The position numbers were made by a program, and so were the translations under genes. Shown in pieces: positions 57,802 through 64,000 of a DNA stretch of 64,000 bases; the first letter of the stretch is position 1, and each line of letters starts with the position of its first letter. The stretch is from an uncultured Chloroflexia bacterium (lineage in GTDB: Bacteria > Chloroflexota > Limnocylindria > Limnocylindrales > CSP1-4): the NCBI GenBank assembly GCA_963712745.1, contig CAVQJC010000008.1, positions 35,968 to 99,967 on the forward strand, read 5' to 3'. The notes beneath the pieces are model-generated. The model had not been told where the DNA came from. It was given only the letters and a program-made list of their open reading frames with translations, and ran no database searches.

Positions 57802-58069
57802 CTATGGGTACCCTATACCTCGGGAGTGGTGTGCGGTCCTCTTGGAGCTCTGGCTCTGCCATTCCTCAGGCTGCGTCGGACCTGAGTTCTCCCGACCGAG
57901 GGACTGTTGCGGCCGATCCTCGAAGTAGCGGCGGTCGCTGGCATGGACCCGCCCGACGCTCGGACCCCCACGAACAGGAATCCGACGGCACGGATGTGCA
58001 GAGCCGACCCGTCGGCAAGTTGCCCGGGGATGACCGGCCCTCGAAGCCTCTGGTATCGTTTCCTGTCTC

Positions 58070-58202
58070 GGGCGGCTAGCTCAGCTGGTTAGAGCACTTG
58101 CTTGACATGCGTCTGACCGGATGCGGCGTAGGTCGCGCTCACGGGAACGCCCTCATCGATGCGGTGAGGGCCTTGTTATGGGCTGAACGTTATCGGCTGA
58201 AC
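58070..58202 (+). repeat. att-like junction copy 4 (tRNA-Val 5' half plus arm)
   Basis: Same 133-bp length; tRNA half identical to copies 1 and 3, arm more diverged. Confidence 0.92.
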
Positions 58203-58625
58203 CACGCTTGGACATACCTGATCACGTCCCCGCCGCCCTCAAGACCGGCCGGGGTCAACGACACTGACCCGGTGGAGGCGTTCATCGATCATGCCGGCGG
58301 ACCGGGAAGAGGCCTCGGTCCACTAGCCAGGGGATGAGGACAGCGCCGGAGACCAGGCCGAAGAGGTAGCAGGCGGCGCCGAAGAGGACGAGCTCGAGCG
58401 GGCTCACATGAGCGGCCGCGTCGGCCGGGCGGTGCTCGCCGACCTGGCCCAATGCGAGTGGAGGAGGGGATCTGCTCCACGATCCCGGTCTGCGGGTCGG
58501 TCAGACGGGCGTCAGGGAATGGACCGTACGGATCATCCCATGACCTCCTCGTCAAGACTTCCATCCTTCAGCGCACCCAGCGGTCCACGGATCGGCTGGT
58601 CGTCCTGCCGCTCCCTGCTCCACAT

Positions 58626-60166
58626 AGGAAGAGATACGGGTTCTGCCCCTCAGCCCGCGTGCGAGCTGGATGGGGACGGCGGGATCGCCCCGGATCCGTG
58701 GCGGGTTCTGCCCGATGTTCAGGGGGGCTCGCCCGCCGACCCGGTCCGGCCGGGCACGGCCGTGTCAGGCAGCGATGGGCAGTGGTCGCACCTCCCCCCG
58801 CGCGATGGCGGGCTCGTAGCCCGGCCGCTCACCGCCATCGACCAGAGCGTGCGCAGGAGCTTGTTGGCGAGGGCCACGTAGGCCTGCTTGGGGGTGAGGC
58901 GGTGGGACCGGTCGCGGTGGGTCAGCTCGAGGAAGCGGGCCCCGAACTCGCGCTCGTGCCGCACGAGGCTCACGGCCGCCTGGTAGGCCACGTAGCGCAG
59001 CACCGGCCGGCCTCGCCGGTGGATGCCTCCCGCGGCCTCGCGCTCGCCGGAGCTGCGCTCGGTGGGGTTGGTGCCCGCGAGCTTGACCAGGCAACGGGCA
59101 TCGTCGAAGCGGGCCGGGTCGCCGGTGAGCCCGAGGAGGGCCGCGAGGGTGGCGTCCCCGAGGCCCTTGAGCTGGCCCCGCAGCCAGCCGTAGCCGGTCT
59201 GCTCGAGCAGCTCGACCAGGCGCGCGTCGAGCTCGGCGATGGCGCCGTCGGCGAGGGCCACCCGCTCCGCCGCCAGACGCCAGCGCAGGGCGGCGGCGGG
59301 GGTCTCGGGCAGCTCGGGCACGTCCCGGGCCGCGGCCCGCAGGCGGCCGGCCATCCAGCGCAGGAAGCGGCGCGGATGATGTCGACGCAGGATGGCCTCG
59401 AAGCGACGGGCCGGCAGGGCCGCGATGACCTGCGGTGTCAGGCCCGTGTGCAGCATCGCCTGGAGGTGCGTGCCGGCCAGGTCCGGGCAGGCCGCCAGCA
59501 GCCCGGGCCAGGCGAGCTCGAGCAGCGCGCTAAATCTCCTGCAGCGCCGCGGCTCGCTCGATGCGCCGGGCATCGCGGGCCGCGACCAGCATCTCGAGCT
59601 CGGCCCAGGGCCTCTCGGCCAGCCTCGTCTCGGTGAAGCGCAGCTCGGCGGCGAGGTCCGCGATGAGCCCGGCGTCGCGGGCATCGGTCTTGTCACGGGT
59701 GAGATCGTCGAGCTCACGGGCGTGGGCCACCACGAAGCCCTGCACCAGGACGTACTCGACGCCGGCGGCCTCGGCGGCCCGGGCCAGCGGTTTCCAGAAG
59801 TGGCTCGTCGGCTCCATGGCCATGACGAGCGGGCCCGTGCCCTGCGCGGCGGCCAGTTCGTGCCCGCGGGCGATGAGCCGTGCCCGGCCCGCCGGGTCGC
59901 TGCTGACGACGAGCTTGCCCACGCGGGCCCGGTCCGACGCTCGGACGTACACCACGACGGCCTCCTTCTTGGCCAGGTCCACCCCGGCGATGAGCGCGTC
60001 CGCAGGCAGGCGCTCCCGGCGCCGGGCCTGCTTCTCCGATCGACGTCGCATGCCTCGCGTAACCTGCATGGTGGGCTGCCCTCCGGTGCTTGGTGTAGAC
60101 ACCTCCAAGCTACCCGGTCCGGCAGCCCCTCCCATGCCCTGAGGAGCTGATCCTATGTTCAGGAAG
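58626..60166 (-). mobile_element. IS110-family element; transposase about 60069 to 58765 with two frameshifts
   Basis: AGVDLAKK, MEPTSHFW, KTDARDA (DEDD RuvC); GTNPTERSSG, HRRGRPVLR, ALANKLLR (Tnp20); AGGAAG direct repeat at both putative ends. Confidence 0.88.
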
Positions 60167-60186: not shown

Positions 60187-60216
60187 GCATGTGCGCTACC
60201 GCTGCGCTACACCCCG
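60187..60216 (-). other. tRNA-Pro 5' fragment (through the 5' anticodon stem)
   Basis: CGGGGTG-TA-GCGC-AGCGGTA-GCGC-A-CATGC, then non-tRNA sequence. Confidence 0.75.
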
Positions 60217-60262
60217 ATGAGTGCGTGCGTGACTGGGGTACACAGCACGCCTCGATGGCGCA

Positions 60263-60290
60263 GGGAACCGATAGCGCGGGGGCGACGTCT
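60263..60290 (+). promoter_or_regulatory. Probable ECF-sigma promoter; 26 bp repeated exactly at 63975-64000
   Basis: GGAAC-N17-CGTC spacing upstream of the YbaY-like gene. Confidence 0.5.
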
Positions 60291-60346
60291 TGTCAGTGGC
60301 GGCGCTCATCCAGACCGTCGCGATAGCACCTGTCGCGGAGACCCCC

Positions 60347-60787
60347 ATGCACAAGCTCAGGCTCATCATCGCCATCGCTGCCCTCGCACTCCCCCTGAGT
60401 GCACTCCCCGTGGGTGCCCAGGACGAGCCGGCCTCGTCGCTCGTCGCGGGCAGCATCGTCCTGCCCGAGGGTTCGATCCTGCCCGACGATGCATCCGTCA
60501 TCGTCTCGGTGGACGACACGATCCTTGCCGACGCTCCGGCAGTGATGCTCTCTCGCCTCGTGATGGAGGCGCCGGGAGCGGGATCGCCGATCCCCTTCGC
60601 GCTGACGGTGCTTCCGGGCACCTACGAGGCGGACCCTGTCCTCGGACCGCTGGAGATCACCATCCTCGTCCGGATCGAAGCATCGGACGGCACCCTGCTG
60701 TTCATCAACGATACGAACTTCATGGCCATCGATGCCGAGGGGCCGAAGCAGGACATGGTGGTCCCCGTGGTGGCCGTGGAGGGCTGA
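60347..60787 (+). CDS. Secreted YbaY/YscW-like protein
   Basis: Signal peptide; LPDDASVIVSVDDTILADAPA, PIPFAL, GTLLFIND. Confidence 0.75.
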   Translation: MHKLRLIIAIAALALPLSALPVGAQDEPASSLVAGSIVLPEGSILPDDASVIVSVDDTILADAPAVMLSRLVMEAPGAGSPIPFALTVLPGTYEADPVLGPLEITILVRIEASDGTLLFINDTNFMAIDAEGPKQDMVVPVVAVEG

Positions 60788-60859
60788 TGCGCAGCCCCTG
60801 CGCCGGTCCCTACACAGCGCGCGACACCGATCGGGCCTAGGGCGCTCGTCGCTGACGGG

Positions 60860-62032
60860 CTAGAAACCGAATAGCCCGCCCAGGTCCGGAAGGACGGTGA
60901 AGGCCACGGCTTCGGCGGCTGTGAGGTTGCCCGTGTCGTTGACGATGGCGGTGAAGGCAGCTCCGGTGTCCTGGTTGTAGAGCACGATCGACTCCCAGCC
61001 GATGAGCTGCCCCGAGTGGCCGATCCAGCCGTTCCCGTAGTCGAACAGGCCCAGCCCGTAGGAACCTTCGGGGATCGGCTGGAAGTCCAGGCGCTCGGCC
61101 GCGATGTCGGCCGGCAGCAGACCGGTGCCGAGACCCGTCTCGGCCCACCTCCCGAGGTCGGCCACCGTCGAGTACATACCGCCGCCGGCCTGGCCCCAGC
61201 TGGGGGTCCAGTCGGTGACGTCGGTGTCGGCTGCCACCTCCAGCCCGAGCCCCGCGAGCTCCGCGGCGCCCGCGGCACCGATGTATCCGTGCGACGCCGG
61301 GTCGGGCATGGCGGTCTGGTCCGGGGCCTGGAGTGCGCTGTCGGACAGGCCGGCCTGGCGGGCGACCTCGGTGACCACTTCCTCGACCGGCTTCCCGGTC
61401 AGCTCCTCGAGCATCTCACCGAGGATGATGATGTTGGTGGTGGAGTAGCCGCCGACCTCGGGGTCCATGAGCGGCAGGCTCATGCCCGCCGCGATGAGCT
61501 CGTCAGGCGTGAACACGTGCTGCGGGTCCTCGACCACCTGCGCGATGGTCACGCCGGTATTGGCGTAGTCCTGGATGGGGCTCTTCATGCCGGCCAGCTG
61601 CTCGACCGTGACGTCCGCGATGTCCGGGTACTCCGCGGCGAGCTCCGGCAGGACGTCGCCGATGGTGGCGTCGAGCGAGAGGTTGCCCTCCGCCACCTGC
61701 TGCAGGATCGCCGTCACGGTGAAGGTCTTGGTCACGCTGCCGATGCGACCGTGCTGGTCGATGGTCGCCGGCTCACTGTCCTTGACGGCGTCGCCGTACG
61801 CCTGGAGGTGGTAGCCCTTGTCGGGATCCCACACGCCGATCCACAGCCCCGCCAGATCGGGGAGCTCGGCGATCGCGTCCTGGACCGTCTGGTCGATCGC
61901 CGCAGCGTCGGCGTCGGACATCGGCGTGGTCGTCAACGCAGGGCCGTTCCACAGTTCGGCCTCCTCGGCCGCAGTCGGCACGGACAACGTCAGCACCAGG
62001 GCTGCAGCTGCCACGGGGATCAGACGTCGCAT
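60860..62032 (-). CDS. Secreted serine hydrolase (beta-lactamase/D-Ala-D-Ala carboxypeptidase family)
   Basis: RIGSVTKTF (SxxK), YSTTN, AGGGMYSTVADL, GHSG. Confidence 0.9.
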   Translation of the reverse strand: MRRLIPVAAAALVLTLSVPTAAEEAELWNGPALTTTPMSDADAAAIDQTVQDAIAELPDLAGLWIGVWDPDKGYHLQAYGDAVKDSEPATIDQHGRIGSVTKTFTVTAILQQVAEGNLSLDATIGDVLPELAAEYPDIADVTVEQLAGMKSPIQDYANTGVTIAQVVEDPQHVFTPDELIAAGMSLPLMDPEVGGYSTTNIIILGEMLEELTGKPVEEVVTEVARQAGLSDSALQAPDQTAMPDPASHGYIGAAGAAELAGLGLEVAADTDVTDWTPSWGQAGGGMYSTVADLGRWAETGLGTGLLPADIAAERLDFQPIPEGSYGLGLFDYGNGWIGHSGQLIGWESIVLYNQDTGAAFTAIVNDTGNLTAAEAVAFTVLPDLGGLFGF

Positions 62033-62226
62033 CGAAGGGCTCCTTCGGGGAATGGGGTCGGGACAAGGCGTGTTCGCTAGCGACATCCTAGGGCGGCAAC
62101 GCCATGAGCGCGGATCGGGTCGAGGCTGGGCGTGGCCACGCACGCGAACCGCACGATGATCGACGCCTTCACCGCTCGGGGTATCGCGCTGAGACAACCG
62201 GGGGCTTCGCCGCTCGAGCCTGAAAG

Positions 62227-62265
62227 GCTCCCGAAGCGTGTGCGCTACCGCTGCGCGACACCCCG
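62227..62265 (-). other. tRNA-Pro(CGG) 5' half ending 2 nt after the anticodon loop
   Basis: CGGGGTG-TC-GCGC-AGCGGTA-GCGC-A-CACGC-TTCGGGA-GC then CTTTCA instead of the GTG needed to close the stem; no T arm. Confidence 0.8.
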
Positions 62266-62404
62266 ACGGTGTCGTGCGTGACTAGGAGCCGCGAAGCCCT
62301 ACTGCCCTCACGCGCGAACACGTCCGCAGTGTGTCGACGTCTGTCGTCCGGAGTGACTGCTACCCTCGCCGGACACACCGACCGAACCGCTAGAGGCCCG
62401 AACC

Positions 62405-63721
62405 ATGTCCCGCCGTGCCGTCGCCGTGACCGCCTGTCTTCTCGTAGCCCTCGGGAGCACGGGCGCCGTCGCCCAGGATGAAGCCGCCCCGCTCACCATC
62501 GACACCCTCTGCGGCGAGGCCGCTCTCGAGCCGATGACGGCCGAGGTCACCCTCGACGCCGATCAGGCAACCACCCTCGACGCGGTGCTGCGTGCCTTCG
62601 TGACGGAGGTCGAGGACCCCGACCTGTTGGCGAACTTCGAGGGGGTGCAGCCGGCACCGGGGGCCGTCCTGTCGGTCGAGACCCCGGACGGTCGCTACTT
62701 CCGCTCGATCGGCGTGGCCGACGTGGAGAGCTGCGCGCCACTCGAGCCGACCTCACCCTTCGCCATCGGCAGCCACACCAAGATGTTCATCGCCGCGGTG
62801 ATCTACCAGCTGCAGGAGGAGGGCGTGCTCTCGACCTCCGACCTGGTCCGCGACTATCTCCCCGATGAGATCGCGCTGTTCCCGCGCCAGGCGGATGCGA
62901 CCATCGATCAGCTGCTGACCCACACGTCCGGTCTGCCGGACTGGGAGAAGTCCGAGAACCCGGAGGCGCTGGGCCCGCGCATCTACAGCGGCGACCCCGA
63001 GGCGCTCGCGATGGCGGTGACGCCCGCGGAGTCCATCGCCATGACCGCGGAGCTGAAGGACGATCCGGACCAGCCCACGTTCGGCCCCGGCGACCAGGGT
63101 CCCTTCGACTGGAGCTACGCGAACATCGGCTTCGAGATGCTCGGCCTCATCATCGAGCAGGTCACCGGACAGCCCTGGCAGGAGGCCGTCCGCGAGCGCA
63201 TCTTCGAACCCCTGGGCATGGACGACACGGTCCTCGTCGAGGGCGTCCCGGGCCCCGAGCTGGGACTGCCGTCCGGCTACCTCGGCGCGCCCTTCGCCGA
63301 GGACACGAACGGCTGGAACTACTCCCAGGGCGGCGCCGCCGGCAATGGCGTCTCGACCGTCGATGACATGGCCACGTTCGTGAAGGCCTACTACTCCGGC
63401 GAGCTGTTCGATGACGCGCAGACGCTCGACGCGGTGCTGCAGCCGGCTGCGCCGTGGTACGTGCAGTGGGTCGACGGCTTCCAGTATCTCCACGCCGGCT
63501 TCGACAAGCACGGCTTCAAGGGACACGGCGGCGGGACGCCAGGCTTCGTCAGCGATGCCGCCTACAACCCCGATCTGGACACCACGACGGTGGCCTGGGT
63601 CAACTCCAAGGAGGGCATGGGCGAAGGCGTGATCGCCGCCGGGAATGCACTGGGCCTGATCCCGAGCATGGCCGACACCATCGGGCTGATCGCGCAGAAG
63701 ATGGCCGAGGCGGCCGAGTAG
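62405..63721 (+). CDS. Secreted serine hydrolase (beta-lactamase family)
   Basis: FAIGSHTKMF (SxxK), LLTHTSGL, WSYANIGF, GHGGGTPGF. Confidence 0.9.
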   Translation: MSRRAVAVTACLLVALGSTGAVAQDEAAPLTIDTLCGEAALEPMTAEVTLDADQATTLDAVLRAFVTEVEDPDLLANFEGVQPAPGAVLSVETPDGRYFRSIGVADVESCAPLEPTSPFAIGSHTKMFIAAVIYQLQEEGVLSTSDLVRDYLPDEIALFPRQADATIDQLLTHTSGLPDWEKSENPEALGPRIYSGDPEALAMAVTPAESIAMTAELKDDPDQPTFGPGDQGPFDWSYANIGFEMLGLIIEQVTGQPWQEAVRERIFEPLGMDDTVLVEGVPGPELGLPSGYLGAPFAEDTNGWNYSQGGAAGNGVSTVDDMATFVKAYYSGELFDDAQTLDAVLQPAAPWYVQWVDGFQYLHAGFDKHGFKGHGGGTPGFVSDAAYNPDLDTTTVAWVNSKEGMGEGVIAAGNALGLIPSMADTIGLIAQKMAEAAE

Positions 63722-64000
63722 CCAGAGGCGGGATCGGCGCCAGCGTCGATCCCGGCTACCGCTGCCCAGCGGCAAGCGGAGGCCGCTGCTGTCCGGCGTG
63801 CTTCGCCGCGTACGAGACTGGCGTGACGATCGGCGGCAAACGATGAGCCAGGCACGTGAGTGCTGGCGGTGCTACCACTGCCAGCACTCCGGTTGGACCC
63901 GTTCGAACGCAACAGCTGACCAGCCCGGTCACCGATGCCCATCAGCTCCTTGGGCGTGTCCGACAGGTCCGCGTGGGAACCGATAGCGCGGGGGCGACGT

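Follow-up and report, generated by a model that had tools for sequence, protein, structure and literature searches.

Two partial copies of a tRNA-Pro gene in a 64,000-nt stretch of an uncultured Chloroflexia genome (the window, on contig C8) are probably attachment-site junctions, the traces of mobile elements that integrated at tRNA-Pro(TGG), on its 5' side, through site-specific recombination at the anticodon loop.

Two tRNA-Pro junctions and their parent gene

Both pieces lie on the minus strand with 2049 bp between their first bases. By direct reading, copy A (60216 to 60187) corresponds to tRNA-Pro nt 1-30 and copy B (62265 to 62227) to nt 1-39. Since neither ARAGORN nor Rfam calls a tRNA in the window, these are fragments and not genes. 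When all 47 host tRNAs were compared with the genome by BLAST, copy A matched tRNA-Pro(TGG) at 29 of 30 positions (E 5.6e-8) and copy B at 35 of 39, ungapped (E 3.4e-6). An nhmmer profile built from 16 Pro junctions also recovered both within the window (E 1.9e-18 for copy A and 1.4e-37 for copy B). A sequence-only reading of this DNA had described the two pieces, the plus-strand flank GTGCGTGACT(G/A)GG common to both and the end of copy B 2 nt past its TTCGGGA loop, as in the Val halves (which end at nt 41), and alignment confirmed each of these points. The 2-kb unit that the same-strand copies flank holds, as that reading proposed, a YbaY-like gene and a serine hydrolase gene. The features of the region are as follows.

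58034-58204, plus strand: Val(GAC)-type junction, on the strand opposite to the Pro copies (nhmmer Val profile, E 1.5e-53)
58532-60155, minus strand: IS110-family insertion, 1624 bp (PF01548 at 59530-60135, PF02371 at 58719-59717)
60187-60260, minus strand: copy A, hybrid site (nhmmer profile positions 16-90)
60187-60216, minus strand: copy A, tRNA-Pro nt 1-30, with unrelated sequence from the stem/loop boundary onward
60217-60260, minus strand: copy A, P arm (profile match)
60290-60787, plus strand: YscW/YbaY-type lipoprotein, cargo (Pfam PF09619, E 7.6e-10)
60860-62197, minus strand: secreted serine hydrolase of the beta-lactamase/PBP4* family, cargo (Pfam PF00144, E 1.2e-36)
62156-62303, minus strand: copy B, complete attP-like Pro junction (nhmmer profile positions 22-170)
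62156-62226, minus strand: copy B, P' arm with two GAGCGGYGAAGG-type repeats (alignment)
62227-62265, minus strand: copy B, tRNA nt 1-39 including the anticodon loop TTCGGGA (alignment)
about 62266-62303, minus strand: copy B, promoter-like P arm
62405-63721, plus strand: second PF00144 serine hydrolase, in the next cassette upstream of copy B (Pfam)

The longest open reading frame of the first serine hydrolase extends into the P' arm of copy B; judging by the GAAGGAG ahead of it, an ATG near 62032 is probably the true start. Homologs of this hydrolase at 73-77% identity occur in three related species (G053, G017 and G012). Lipoprotein homologs of 75-78% nucleotide identity are found within the main Pro arrays of G021 and G059 or next to them, and they face the same way with respect to the junctions.

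The ungapped match, together with both flanking arms, identifies tRNA-Pro(TGG) at C5:73679-73753 (minus strand) as the parent. The earlier suggestion that the mechanism seen at tRNA-Val also operates at tRNA-Pro(CGG) was right about the breakpoint geometry at the loop of a second tRNA and wrong about the target. The CGG in one window copy is a point substitution, and BLAST of the host tRNAs against the genome gave zero partial copies of tRNA-Pro(CGG) or tRNA-Pro(GGG). The same genome-wide search, which that reading had proposed, located the matching tRNA-Pro(TGG) and 21 partial copies of it, covering nt 1-30 to 1-39.

The junction profile produced 28 matches in this genome (G000). Of these, the sixteen at C5:76985-110211 are full junctions, and every one lies upstream of tRNA-Pro(TGG) and on its strand. 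In this main array nearly every unit of one to three genes is bounded by a full junction, the cassettes are only 1-5 kb long, and their genes occur on both strands. The cargo of cassettes in the lineage includes hydrolases, methyltransferases, sulfatases, toxin-antitoxin pairs and regulators. Further arrays in the same genome contain 5' halves at Val, Lys and Arg and 3' halves at Thr, Gly and Asn, and these halves begin or end at the anticodon loop. Altogether the genome carries roughly 60 copies of tRNA halves.

Across 94 unique full junctions, the Pro junction is a conserved unit of ~170 nt consisting of a P arm, tRNA nt 1-39 and a P' arm. The sequence GAGCGGYGAAGG occurs 24 times in the genome, and 21 of these occurrences are inside Pro junctions. 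In G000, G021 and G059 the genuine tRNA-Pro gene is preceded by the P arm (profile positions 2/5-101); a simple sigma-70 scan of this arm, a putative promoter, returned no promoter. RNAalifold analysis of the 94 junctions recovered only tRNA-like pairings in the tRNA half and no conserved fold in the arms, and the junction was rejected as a structured RNA. It was also rejected as coding sequence: an antisense open reading frame was read by eye, and its frame is broken by indels between copies.

Candidate recombinases and the origin of the cassettes

We found no recombinase by Pfam among the 27 ORFs of the window, and recombinase domains were absent from all 39 ORFs of the main array. A six-frame search of the genome gave only 4 PF00589 matches, with 1 PF00239 match besides, and none of these was on C5 or C8. 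One PF00589 match, at C17:376381 near tRNA-Lys, proved to be a decayed remnant, a C-terminal fragment downstream of the tRNA. Similar remnants at tRNA-Lys occur in G060 (a partial domain) and in G043/G056 (a 210-aa frame and, besides it, a stop-containing fragment). In G022 the same place downstream of tRNA-Lys holds a catalytic-domain frame of 209 aa. A 586-aa integrase on C12 adjoins a DUF3987 gene; its neighborhood contains neither a tRNA nor a junction, and it has no connection with the arrays. Beyond this genome, there was no recombinase among 122 ORFs beside junctions on metagenome contigs (62 loci), nor within about 100 kb of the Pro arrays in the 12 relatives listed in full. A junction 20-mer had 0 matches in viral contigs, and contigs of four public runs (X1, X2, X3 and X5) contained no excision or circle joint at junction cores; the joint labelled 'goes back 1993' in the public-run contigs was only cross-matching between junction copies.

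Relatives in the genus do encode tyrosine recombinases beside tRNA genes. They form a family of ~310-aa Xer-like proteins, and 18 of the 19 homolog loci have a tRNA within ~200 nt: Pro(TGG), Val(GAC) (two), Arg(TCG) (seven), Ala(GGC), Arg(TCT) and Gly. The presence of these enzymes beside six tRNA types bears out the earlier idea of a family of elements with different tRNA specificities. A comparison of integrase phylogeny with tRNA target, also proposed earlier, places 6 Arg(TCG) enzymes in a single clade (support 99/99). The best NCBIfam matches of the family are XerC, XerD and XerA, all below the equivalog cut-offs, so the family is not XerC or XerD itself. The Val-linked members include one encoded at L146:2405-3352. 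The Pro-linked member is encoded in G008, where the gene for a 312-aa recombinase, at L133:1501-2436, begins 122 nt upstream of tRNA-Pro(TGG) and is divergent from the tRNA, with a partial Pro junction 5.9 kb from the locus. The protein combines a SAM-like N-terminal domain (PF02899/PF13495 at 20-103) with a catalytic domain (PF00589 at 125-295) and has no arm-binding domain, as in Xer-like simple tyrosine recombinases. This is the sole Pro-linked integrase element, and since its P and P' arms differ from the junctions of the present genome, its enzyme may not be the cognate one. An integrase inside the element and next to an att site was seen only in elements of G008, G062 and G011 among the relatives. 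Among the fully listed genomes that have large Pro arrays, none has a family member beside tRNA-Pro; only N-terminal family fragments are present, by tRNA-Gly in G061 and G021.

The sequence-only reading had proposed to locate integrases neighboring the intact tRNA; the assembly of this genome (a MAG, 84.55% complete, with 5.03% contamination) has no member of the Xer-like family at all. It follows that nothing here can currently move the cassettes, unless the enzyme is in the unassembled ~15%, and the cassettes would be either frozen or moved only by an enzyme acting in trans.

We propose the following course of events. A mobile element would bring its own tRNA promoter region and first half (P arm plus nt 1-39), and insertion, with a crossover presumably within the 7-nt anticodon loop, would join this element-borne 5' half to the resident 3' half. 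The tRNA would stay intact because the 5' copy of the element joins the resident 3' half, while the old 5' half would be displaced and pushed upstream. With each further insertion a stack of cassettes would grow in one direction only, an attP-like junction (P arm, 5' half, P' arm) standing between one cassette and the next. Copy B would be one complete junction of this kind. Copy A would be a hybrid, formed when a Pro junction recombined at the loop's 5' edge with a secondary, foreign site in a module attached to the Val-type junctions, and between the two copies would lie one integrase-less cassette with the serine hydrolase and the lipoprotein. The most likely enzymes are the ~310-aa Xer-like recombinases, whose genes in related species lie directly upstream of the target tRNA and divergent from it.

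We also entertain, as a tentative extension that we hold to be somewhat less probable than its absence, the idea that tRNA genes of this Limnocylindrales-type genus serve as integron-like platforms. Small Xer-like enzymes, whose genes only some strains have beside the tRNA, would shuffle integrase-less cassettes, drawn from a genus-wide pool at eight or more tRNA loci, between anticodon stem-loop cores, these being the tRNA gene, the array junctions and the hybrid secondary sites. Each cassette would bear a spare tRNA promoter and 5' half, and the orphan promoter would possibly drive the cassette behind it.

Another explanation is that the arrays are a graveyard, in which each cassette was once a full element with an integrase that has since been deleted, and was never mobilised in trans. 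Integrase-bearing elements do occur at the same tRNAs in relatives, some of them pseudogenised (L141 with 2 TAG codons, L142/L151 frameshifted, L148 and L149 reduced to N-terminal fragments), and the decayed integrases downstream of tRNA-Lys in G000, G060 and G043/G056 point the same way. We nevertheless regard this history as unlikely. All 16 consecutive junctions retain both arms, with zero integrase remnants in the 39 array ORFs or by six-frame PF00589 search, and the 122 metagenome-contig ORFs contain no remnant either; the cassettes are also only 1-5 kb long. Because the P arm and the integrase gene are immediate neighbors in the family (the gene is 122 nt from the tRNA in G008), a 16-fold deletion of integrases that each time spared the ~60-nt P arm is improbable.

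Breakpoints, local layout and cassette sharing

The ~170-nt unit could instead be a dispersed repeat, either MITE-like or a small-RNA gene made of a promoter and a tRNA half, whose copies spread through transposition or through homologous recombination. Such a repeat would fit the short inverted repeats (ATCGAGG ... CCTCGAT) at the outer ends of the unit, the homology boundaries found repeatedly at the P arm's outer edge (window 60263) and the cargo that is in some cases far more conserved than its junction. A dispersed repeat does not account for the 16 units on C5, which all share one strand and are placed immediately upstream of the cognate tRNA, for the analogous arrays delimited by the anticodon loop at seven other tRNAs, or for the integrases at the same tRNAs in relatives, and P' has no conserved RNA structure. 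The breakpoints argue against it as well. Among four hybrid sites the break is at nt 30 in three and at nt 32 in one, and a site of the reciprocal type (C5:101759) begins with TTGGGAGC, inside the loop, and continues into P', so that hybrid and reciprocal sites alike break at nt 30-32. We consider the repeat explanation improbable and favor recombination at the loop.

The sequence-only reading had noted that copy A is the shorter piece and lies about 20 bp from an IS110 end; it is indeed shorter, and the distance is 31 bp (IS end at 60155). It had further implied that the IS cut copy A and that an inverted block from the main array lies here. IS110-mediated inversion or transposition of a block of the main Pro array is suggested by the position of the element, between Val and Pro junctions of opposite orientation, and is in our judgment very improbable. 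From its promoter-like arm the Val junction runs through tRNA-Val nt 1-41 to a second arm, which has a terminator-like hairpin (58149-58171), and the extended arm of the junction bears a conserved module that terminates in copy A. The IS, single-copy in the assembly, sits inside this module and is not what shortened copy A; the sequences on either side of the IS adjoin without a gap in IS-free paralogs (C17:5044-5408 and C10:6999-7297). These carry the same truncated Pro piece: three IS-free paralogs of copy A (C17:5374-5456, C10:7254-7306 and C16:14974-15058) end at profile positions 90-93 and break at the position of copy A or at most 2 nt from it. An IS-free hybrid site was found in a public metagenome contig too, and the layout of a plus-strand Val junction and a minus-strand Pro junction recurs without this IS in a second species, G055. 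The window cassettes, moreover, are not copies of main-array cassettes, their best paralog in G000 being 64% identical.

That the end of contig C8 is a chimera of Val- and Pro-array reads joined through repeats is scarcely credible: the block does lie within the last 4 kb of a contig that terminates in a 26-nt repeat of itself, in a MAG of 84.55% completeness and 5.03% contamination, but the independent genome G055 has the same arrangement, including a 96% identical cassette, and public-run contigs span the joins between junctions and cargo. Together with a contig of run X3 in which 63974 is joined to 60263, the 26-nt terminal repeat points to a repeated leader of the lipoprotein gene.

Related species have Pro arrays with homologous cassettes at differing ranks, that is, shuffled, and identity reaches 90-96% in some shared cassettes, compared with 70-82% in the core flank. 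By BLAST and nhmmer, window 62094-63814 is 96% identical to a block of G055 that has Pro junctions on either side. This shared block extends 62 nt beyond the P' arm, and in a PIN/PRiA4 cassette the cargo is 95% identical with an adjacent junction of only ~78%. Since blocks of high identity do not always end in the tRNA core, some of the exchange may have occurred by homologous recombination.

Relation to known tRNA-site systems

According to PMC6563490, recombination on the 5' side of tRNA genes is considerably rarer than on the 3' side; for integration in this reverse orientation it cites Zhao & Williams 2002 (J Bacteriol 184:859). In such integration the 5' part of the tRNA is the partner with which the element recombines, and the 5' fragment that is displaced comes to mark the element's far end. 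Because recombination is with the 5' part, the element must supply that part and a promoter. Here, too, it is the 5' part of the tRNA that is repeated, and in G000, G021 and G059 the functional gene has the P arm joined to it. Instead of one element with an integrase, the present system has as many as 16 integrase-less cassettes in a stack, all of them with complete junctions, as well as hybrid secondary sites and several tRNAs in parallel. With tRNA elements that use the anticodon loop in general it shares direct repeats of a tRNA segment beside an intact tRNA and a block of identity limited by the loop; an integrase within the element is absent from the window block, the main array and the 62 metagenome loci.

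The Tycheposons of Prochlorococcus (bioRxiv 10.1101/2020.12.28.424599) form islands beside specific tRNAs, Pro(TGG) among them, with partial tRNAs as attachment sites. The integrases cluster by target tRNA, most islands are without an intact element, and newcomers push older material outward; integration and replication modules are the hallmarks, and the partial tRNAs are described as scattered remnants. The Pro arrays resemble these islands in tRNA-anchored growth, partial-tRNA att sites, target-wise clustering of integrases and outward displacement. They differ in that the linked enzymes are small Xer-like recombinases, divergent beside the tRNA, and in that the junctions are full units of ~170 nt. 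We found no replication or packaging modules in the 27 window, 39 array or 122 metagenome ORFs or in the 8 ORFs of the G008 element, whose integrase is its sole hallmark of the Tycheposon type.

Tandem accretion at tRNA 3' ends, as in CIMEs of the ICESt1/ICESt3 type, likewise yields integrase-less modules bounded by att sites, which a related element's integrase can in principle mobilise in cis or in trans. The Pro arrays have the opposite polarity (5' half plus promoter), modules that are far smaller and more numerous, and no conjugation genes.

In the literature, searched for cassette arrays bounded by tRNA fragments and for integrases and tRNAs in Limnocylindr*, this system was not described. 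We class it as tRNA-site integration in a variant form, whose polarity is reversed (5'-side) and whose cassettes lack an integrase. A mode of integration that is rarely reported is here the dominant form of accessory-gene storage in an uncultured soil and sediment lineage of Chloroflexota, and integrase-less cassettes with complete attachment sites can evidently pile up by the dozen and come to be shared by different species.

Integrons are one-way arrays of small gene cassettes that lack a recombinase and are separated by recombination sites. The likeness extends to the enzyme, a simple tyrosine recombinase without an arm-binding domain whose gene, in some genomes, lies divergently beside the insertion point. 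In contrast to integrons, the Pro arrays have no folded attC-type site, insertion takes place at a functional tRNA gene, the cassettes have genes on either strand, and the recombinase is absent from array-rich genomes; no recombinase of the intI type or any other lies near tRNA-Pro in G000. The Xer-like family scores weakly against integron-integrase models (58 bits, with a cut-off of 265). This tRNA-linked family offers a concrete enzyme that can be tested, and if the cassettes are mobilised in trans, the arrays would be a second, tRNA-based answer to the problem that integrons solve.

Proline junctions and their parent tRNA

The window belongs to an assembly (G000) of 20 contigs and 4.2 Mb, rated 84.55% complete with 5.03% contamination, in which it occupies positions 35968-99967 of contig C8. 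Neither a complete tRNA gene (ARAGORN) nor an Rfam family was found in the window. Direct reading of the window bore out much of the sequence-only reading: the two minus-strand tRNA-Pro pieces share an upstream flank, lie 2049 bp apart, and the longer one (copy B) ends 2 nt past the loop. Pfam confirmed the two genes that they bracket.

Of the assembly's 47 tRNA genes, three encode proline tRNAs (GGG, CGG and TGG). tRNA-Pro(CGG) had been proposed as the target, but copy A was identical to tRNA-Pro(TGG) at 29/30 positions and copy B at 35/39, ungapped, versus 24/30 and 33/39, with gaps required, for tRNA-Pro(CGG). A genome-wide BLAST search with all host tRNAs recovered further Pro halves and the intact tRNA-Pro(TGG) on contig C5, and no partial copies of tRNA-Pro(CGG) or tRNA-Pro(GGG). 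The parent is thus tRNA-Pro(TGG), and from these identities we read the CGG in the loop of copy B as a substitution within a TGG-derived copy; the alignment of copies showed it in two main-array junctions as well.

Conservation extended to both sides of the tRNA half when all Pro copies were aligned. A profile built from 16 copies defined a three-part unit of ~170 nt and had 28 matches in the assembly, one of them the tRNA-Pro(TGG) gene itself.

Proline features, by gene call, direct reading, junction profile or Pfam
C5:73679-73753, minus strand: intact tRNA-Pro(TGG) gene
C5:76985-110211, strand of the tRNA: 16 full junctions, all upstream of tRNA-Pro(TGG), spaced 1-5 kb
C5, out to 122599: three partial junction traces
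C17: one full junction
C20: two junctions
Window 62265 to 62227, minus strand: tRNA-Pro nt 1-39, within copy B (62156-62303)
Window 60216 to 60187, minus strand: tRNA-Pro nt 1-30, within copy A (60187-60260), one of four hybrid sites (window, C17, C10, C16)
Window 58532-60155, minus strand: IS110-family element, single-copy in the assembly
Junction, P arm: ~60 nt ending at the tRNA start, containing GCTGTGTACCCTA
Junction, O: tRNA nt 1-39, the middle part
Junction, P' arm: ~70 nt ending in CCTCGAT, with two GAGCGGYGAAGG-type direct repeats

All three blocks were kept when 94 unique full junctions from this assembly, relatives and metagenome contigs were reduced to a consensus, and RNAalifold detected no conserved pairing in their arms. 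A 12-nt arm motif occurred 24 times in the assembly, 21 of them within Pro junctions, and the same P arm preceded the genuine tRNA-Pro gene here and in two relatives (G021 and G059). By this anatomy, copy B reads as one complete Pro junction.

Hybrid sites and the IS110 element

The IS110 element did not truncate copy A: the IS flanks are contiguous in paralogs at C17:5044-5408 and C10:6999-7297, and in both paralogs, as in copy A, the same P arm and tRNA nt 1-30 run directly into the same foreign sequence. Profile matches at the four hybrid sites ended at positions 90-93, with the break at tRNA nt 30 in three of four and two nucleotides later in the C16 copy. The foreign module has two more paralogs (C20 and C9), which carry no Pro piece and look like an unoccupied secondary site. 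We also found a site of the reciprocal type at C5:101759, where foreign DNA is followed by TTGGGAGC and then a full P' arm; at the corresponding place, two relatives (G064 and G059) have a homologous cassette with a complete junction. Since the hybrid sites end at nt 30-32 and the reciprocal site starts with TTGGGAGC, the breakpoints of both kinds fall at the anticodon loop's 5' edge, the position at which one would expect cleavage by a tyrosine recombinase that works on the stem-loop.

Both the window hybrid and the C16 hybrid sit, inverted, at the end of a Val-type junction's extended arm, which is why the Pro pieces run opposite to the Val halves. This arm contains a short hydrophobic ORF (~41 aa, high GC3; window ~58289-58411, minus strand), with the Val half on one side and the inverted Pro hybrid on the other, and a nearly identical paralog lies at C20:35251-35520. 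Directly after the orphan tRNA-Val 5' half, a terminator-like hairpin with a T-rich tail (58149-58171, plus strand) is kept in 7/7 Val junctions and has no equivalent in the Pro junction. Insertion of the IS110 element separated GTACGG from TGTTC in the conserved module. The element's transposase (58719-60135, minus strand) lies in two overlapping frames (PF01548, 59530-60135; PF02371, 58719-59717), which indicates a frameshifted pseudogene or else a sequencing error.

The final 26 nt of the contig (window 63975-64000) repeat 60263-60288, which abuts the P arm of copy A, and a contig from a public sequencing run (X3) connects 63974 with 60263 and continues for 72 nt. Past the contig end, the DNA therefore probably begins with a further lipoprotein-gene leader. 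Homology to G059 also starts at 60263.

Arrays and cassette sharing among relatives

GC3-based gene calling over C5:68001-122000 gave 46 ORFs. None of the 39 scanned with Pfam had a recombinase domain; the other seven were three core genes (68001-70386), a 78-aa ORF overlapping a junction, a two-locus ORF, and small ORFs at 119966 and 121235. The cargo comprised methyltransferases, alpha/beta and PF00144 hydrolases, sulfatases, dehydrogenases and toxin-antitoxin genes. A six-frame search of the whole assembly gave four PF00589 matches (a Xer-like pair on C4, one on C12, and a fragment on C17) and one PF00239 match, none of them on C5 or C8.

The BLAST search, with inspection of flanks, also identified 5'-half copies of tRNA-Val(GAC) (7), tRNA-Lys(TTT) (2) and tRNA-Arg(TCG) (1), and 3'-half copies of tRNA-Thr(CGT) (14), tRNA-Gly(TCC) (8) and tRNA-Asn(GTT) (3). 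Every family had its own conserved flanks, and its identity block started or stopped at the anticodon loop. The 3'-half arrays lie behind tRNA-Thr(CGT) (C5:295866-377299; 11 copies across 81 kb), tRNA-Gly(TCC) (C20:652560-660458) and tRNA-Asn(GTT) (C1:128064-218422). By a rough estimate from coordinates, tRNA-anchored arrays make up ~5% of the assembly. Contigs C1 and C2 have an identical tRNA gene series and order (Ala-Ile, Ser-Ser, Arg-Ser, Ser), which points to two related strains in the MAG, or else to a large internal duplication.

A junction 20-mer was present in 29 stretches titled as uncultured Chloroflexia, Candidatus Limnocylindrales and Chloroflexota MAGs, and one Mycobacterium; it had no match in viral contigs. 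Pro arrays lie upstream of tRNA-Pro(TGG) in many of the genus's 49 genomes. The core flank downstream of this gene is syntenic at 70-82% identity across relatives; array cassettes were found at differing ranks, and some are far more similar than the core flank (C5:103608-104614, 95.7% identity to G059 and 94.9% to G009; C5:98228-101759, ~90% to G059 and G064). Homologs of the window cassette's lipoprotein gene (75-78% identity) lie within or next to the main Pro arrays of G021 and G059, with the orientation to the junctions kept.

Another relative, G055, shares the Val/Pro layout of the window, with Val junctions on one strand and then a pair of Pro junctions on the opposite one. The block between its Pro junctions is 96% identical to window 62094-63814, against 70-80% for other matches between the two genomes. 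This speaks against both an assembly chimera and a recent rearrangement by the IS as the origin of the layout. The 96% block overruns the P' arm by 62 nt, and in a PIN/PRiA4 cassette the cargo is much more similar between species than the adjoining junction; some between-species exchange may therefore proceed by homologous recombination rather than at the core. In contigs from four public runs, which cover the region in part and include an IS-free hybrid site, no excision joint was present.

tRNA-linked recombinases and a proposed mechanism

An integrase gene beside the intact tRNA-Pro was present in G008, a relative in which a genus-wide search gave, among the matches listed, a PF00589 match at C3:302288-302800. 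The 312-aa protein combines a SAM-like N-terminal domain with a catalytic one, and its best NCBIfam matches (XerC, XerD and XerA) were all under cut-offs. The gene is divergent from tRNA-Pro(TGG) and begins 122 nt upstream of it, with a partial Pro junction 5.9 kb further upstream. Our assembly has no member of the family, and only its Xer pair matched, at 27-31% identity. Nor was PF00589 found within ~100 kb of Pro arrays in 12 relatives listed in full, or a recombinase among 122 ORFs (at least 150 aa) beside junctions at 62 metagenome loci. The G008 arms differ from those of our junctions, so its enzyme may not be their cognate.

Homologs in other genus members were 42-55% identical, and 18 of 19 loci examined had a tRNA gene within ~200 nt.

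Positions of the Xer-like recombinase genes
Divergent, 5' side: Pro(TGG), one; Val(GAC), two (one frameshifted, element ~1.5 kb); Arg(TCG), seven (one pseudogene); Ala(GGC), Arg(TCT) and Gly(TCC), one each
Same direction, 3' side: Gly(CCC), one; Gly(TCC) fragments, two
19th locus: 4.2-kb contig, no tRNA

At L151 (G011:C13, 6918-8461) a minimal element of ~1.5 kb in total has a frameshifted integrase gene alone between tRNA-Val(GAC) and a Val junction remnant. In a midpoint-rooted tree of 12 full-length proteins, without an outgroup, six Arg(TCG) enzymes formed one clade (99/99 support), and the Pro, Ala and Val enzymes lay on separate branches. The proposal of a family of elements with different tRNA specificities agrees with this clade and with recombinase genes adjoining Pro, Val, Arg, Ala and Gly tRNAs. 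Pro(TGG), Val(GAC) and Arg(TCG) have 5'-half copies in our assembly and are among the family's targets.

Serial integration by a tyrosine recombinase would account for the junction anatomy, with each element replacing the tRNA 5' half and supplying a promoter. Integration on the 5' side of a tRNA is rarely reported, according to PMC6563490, citing Zhao & Williams 2002. The cassettes have no integrase, yet retain a complete junction, and the window block is a cassette of this kind, with a complete junction (copy B) on one side and a hybrid secondary site (copy A) on the other. Such cassettes may still be moved by enzymes in trans or may be frozen. The shuffling of cassettes, and their sharing at high identity between species, speak for turnover; that array-rich genomes lack the enzyme speaks for any trans activity being rare or of outside origin. 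Literature searches found no description of a tRNA-half cassette system in Limnocylindrales-type bacteria. The closest described system is the tycheposon-shaped islands of Prochlorococcus; integrons offer a functional analogy only.

An integrase of a type distinct from the Xer-like family lies 1-4 kb downstream of tRNA-Lys(TTT), convergently, in four genus genomes (loci L007 12381-12530, L121 7166-7795, L128 6362-7285 and L130 880-1506). Our assembly has a C-terminal fragment of it, G060 and G043/G056 have partial or split copies, and G022 retains a 209-aa catalytic-domain frame.
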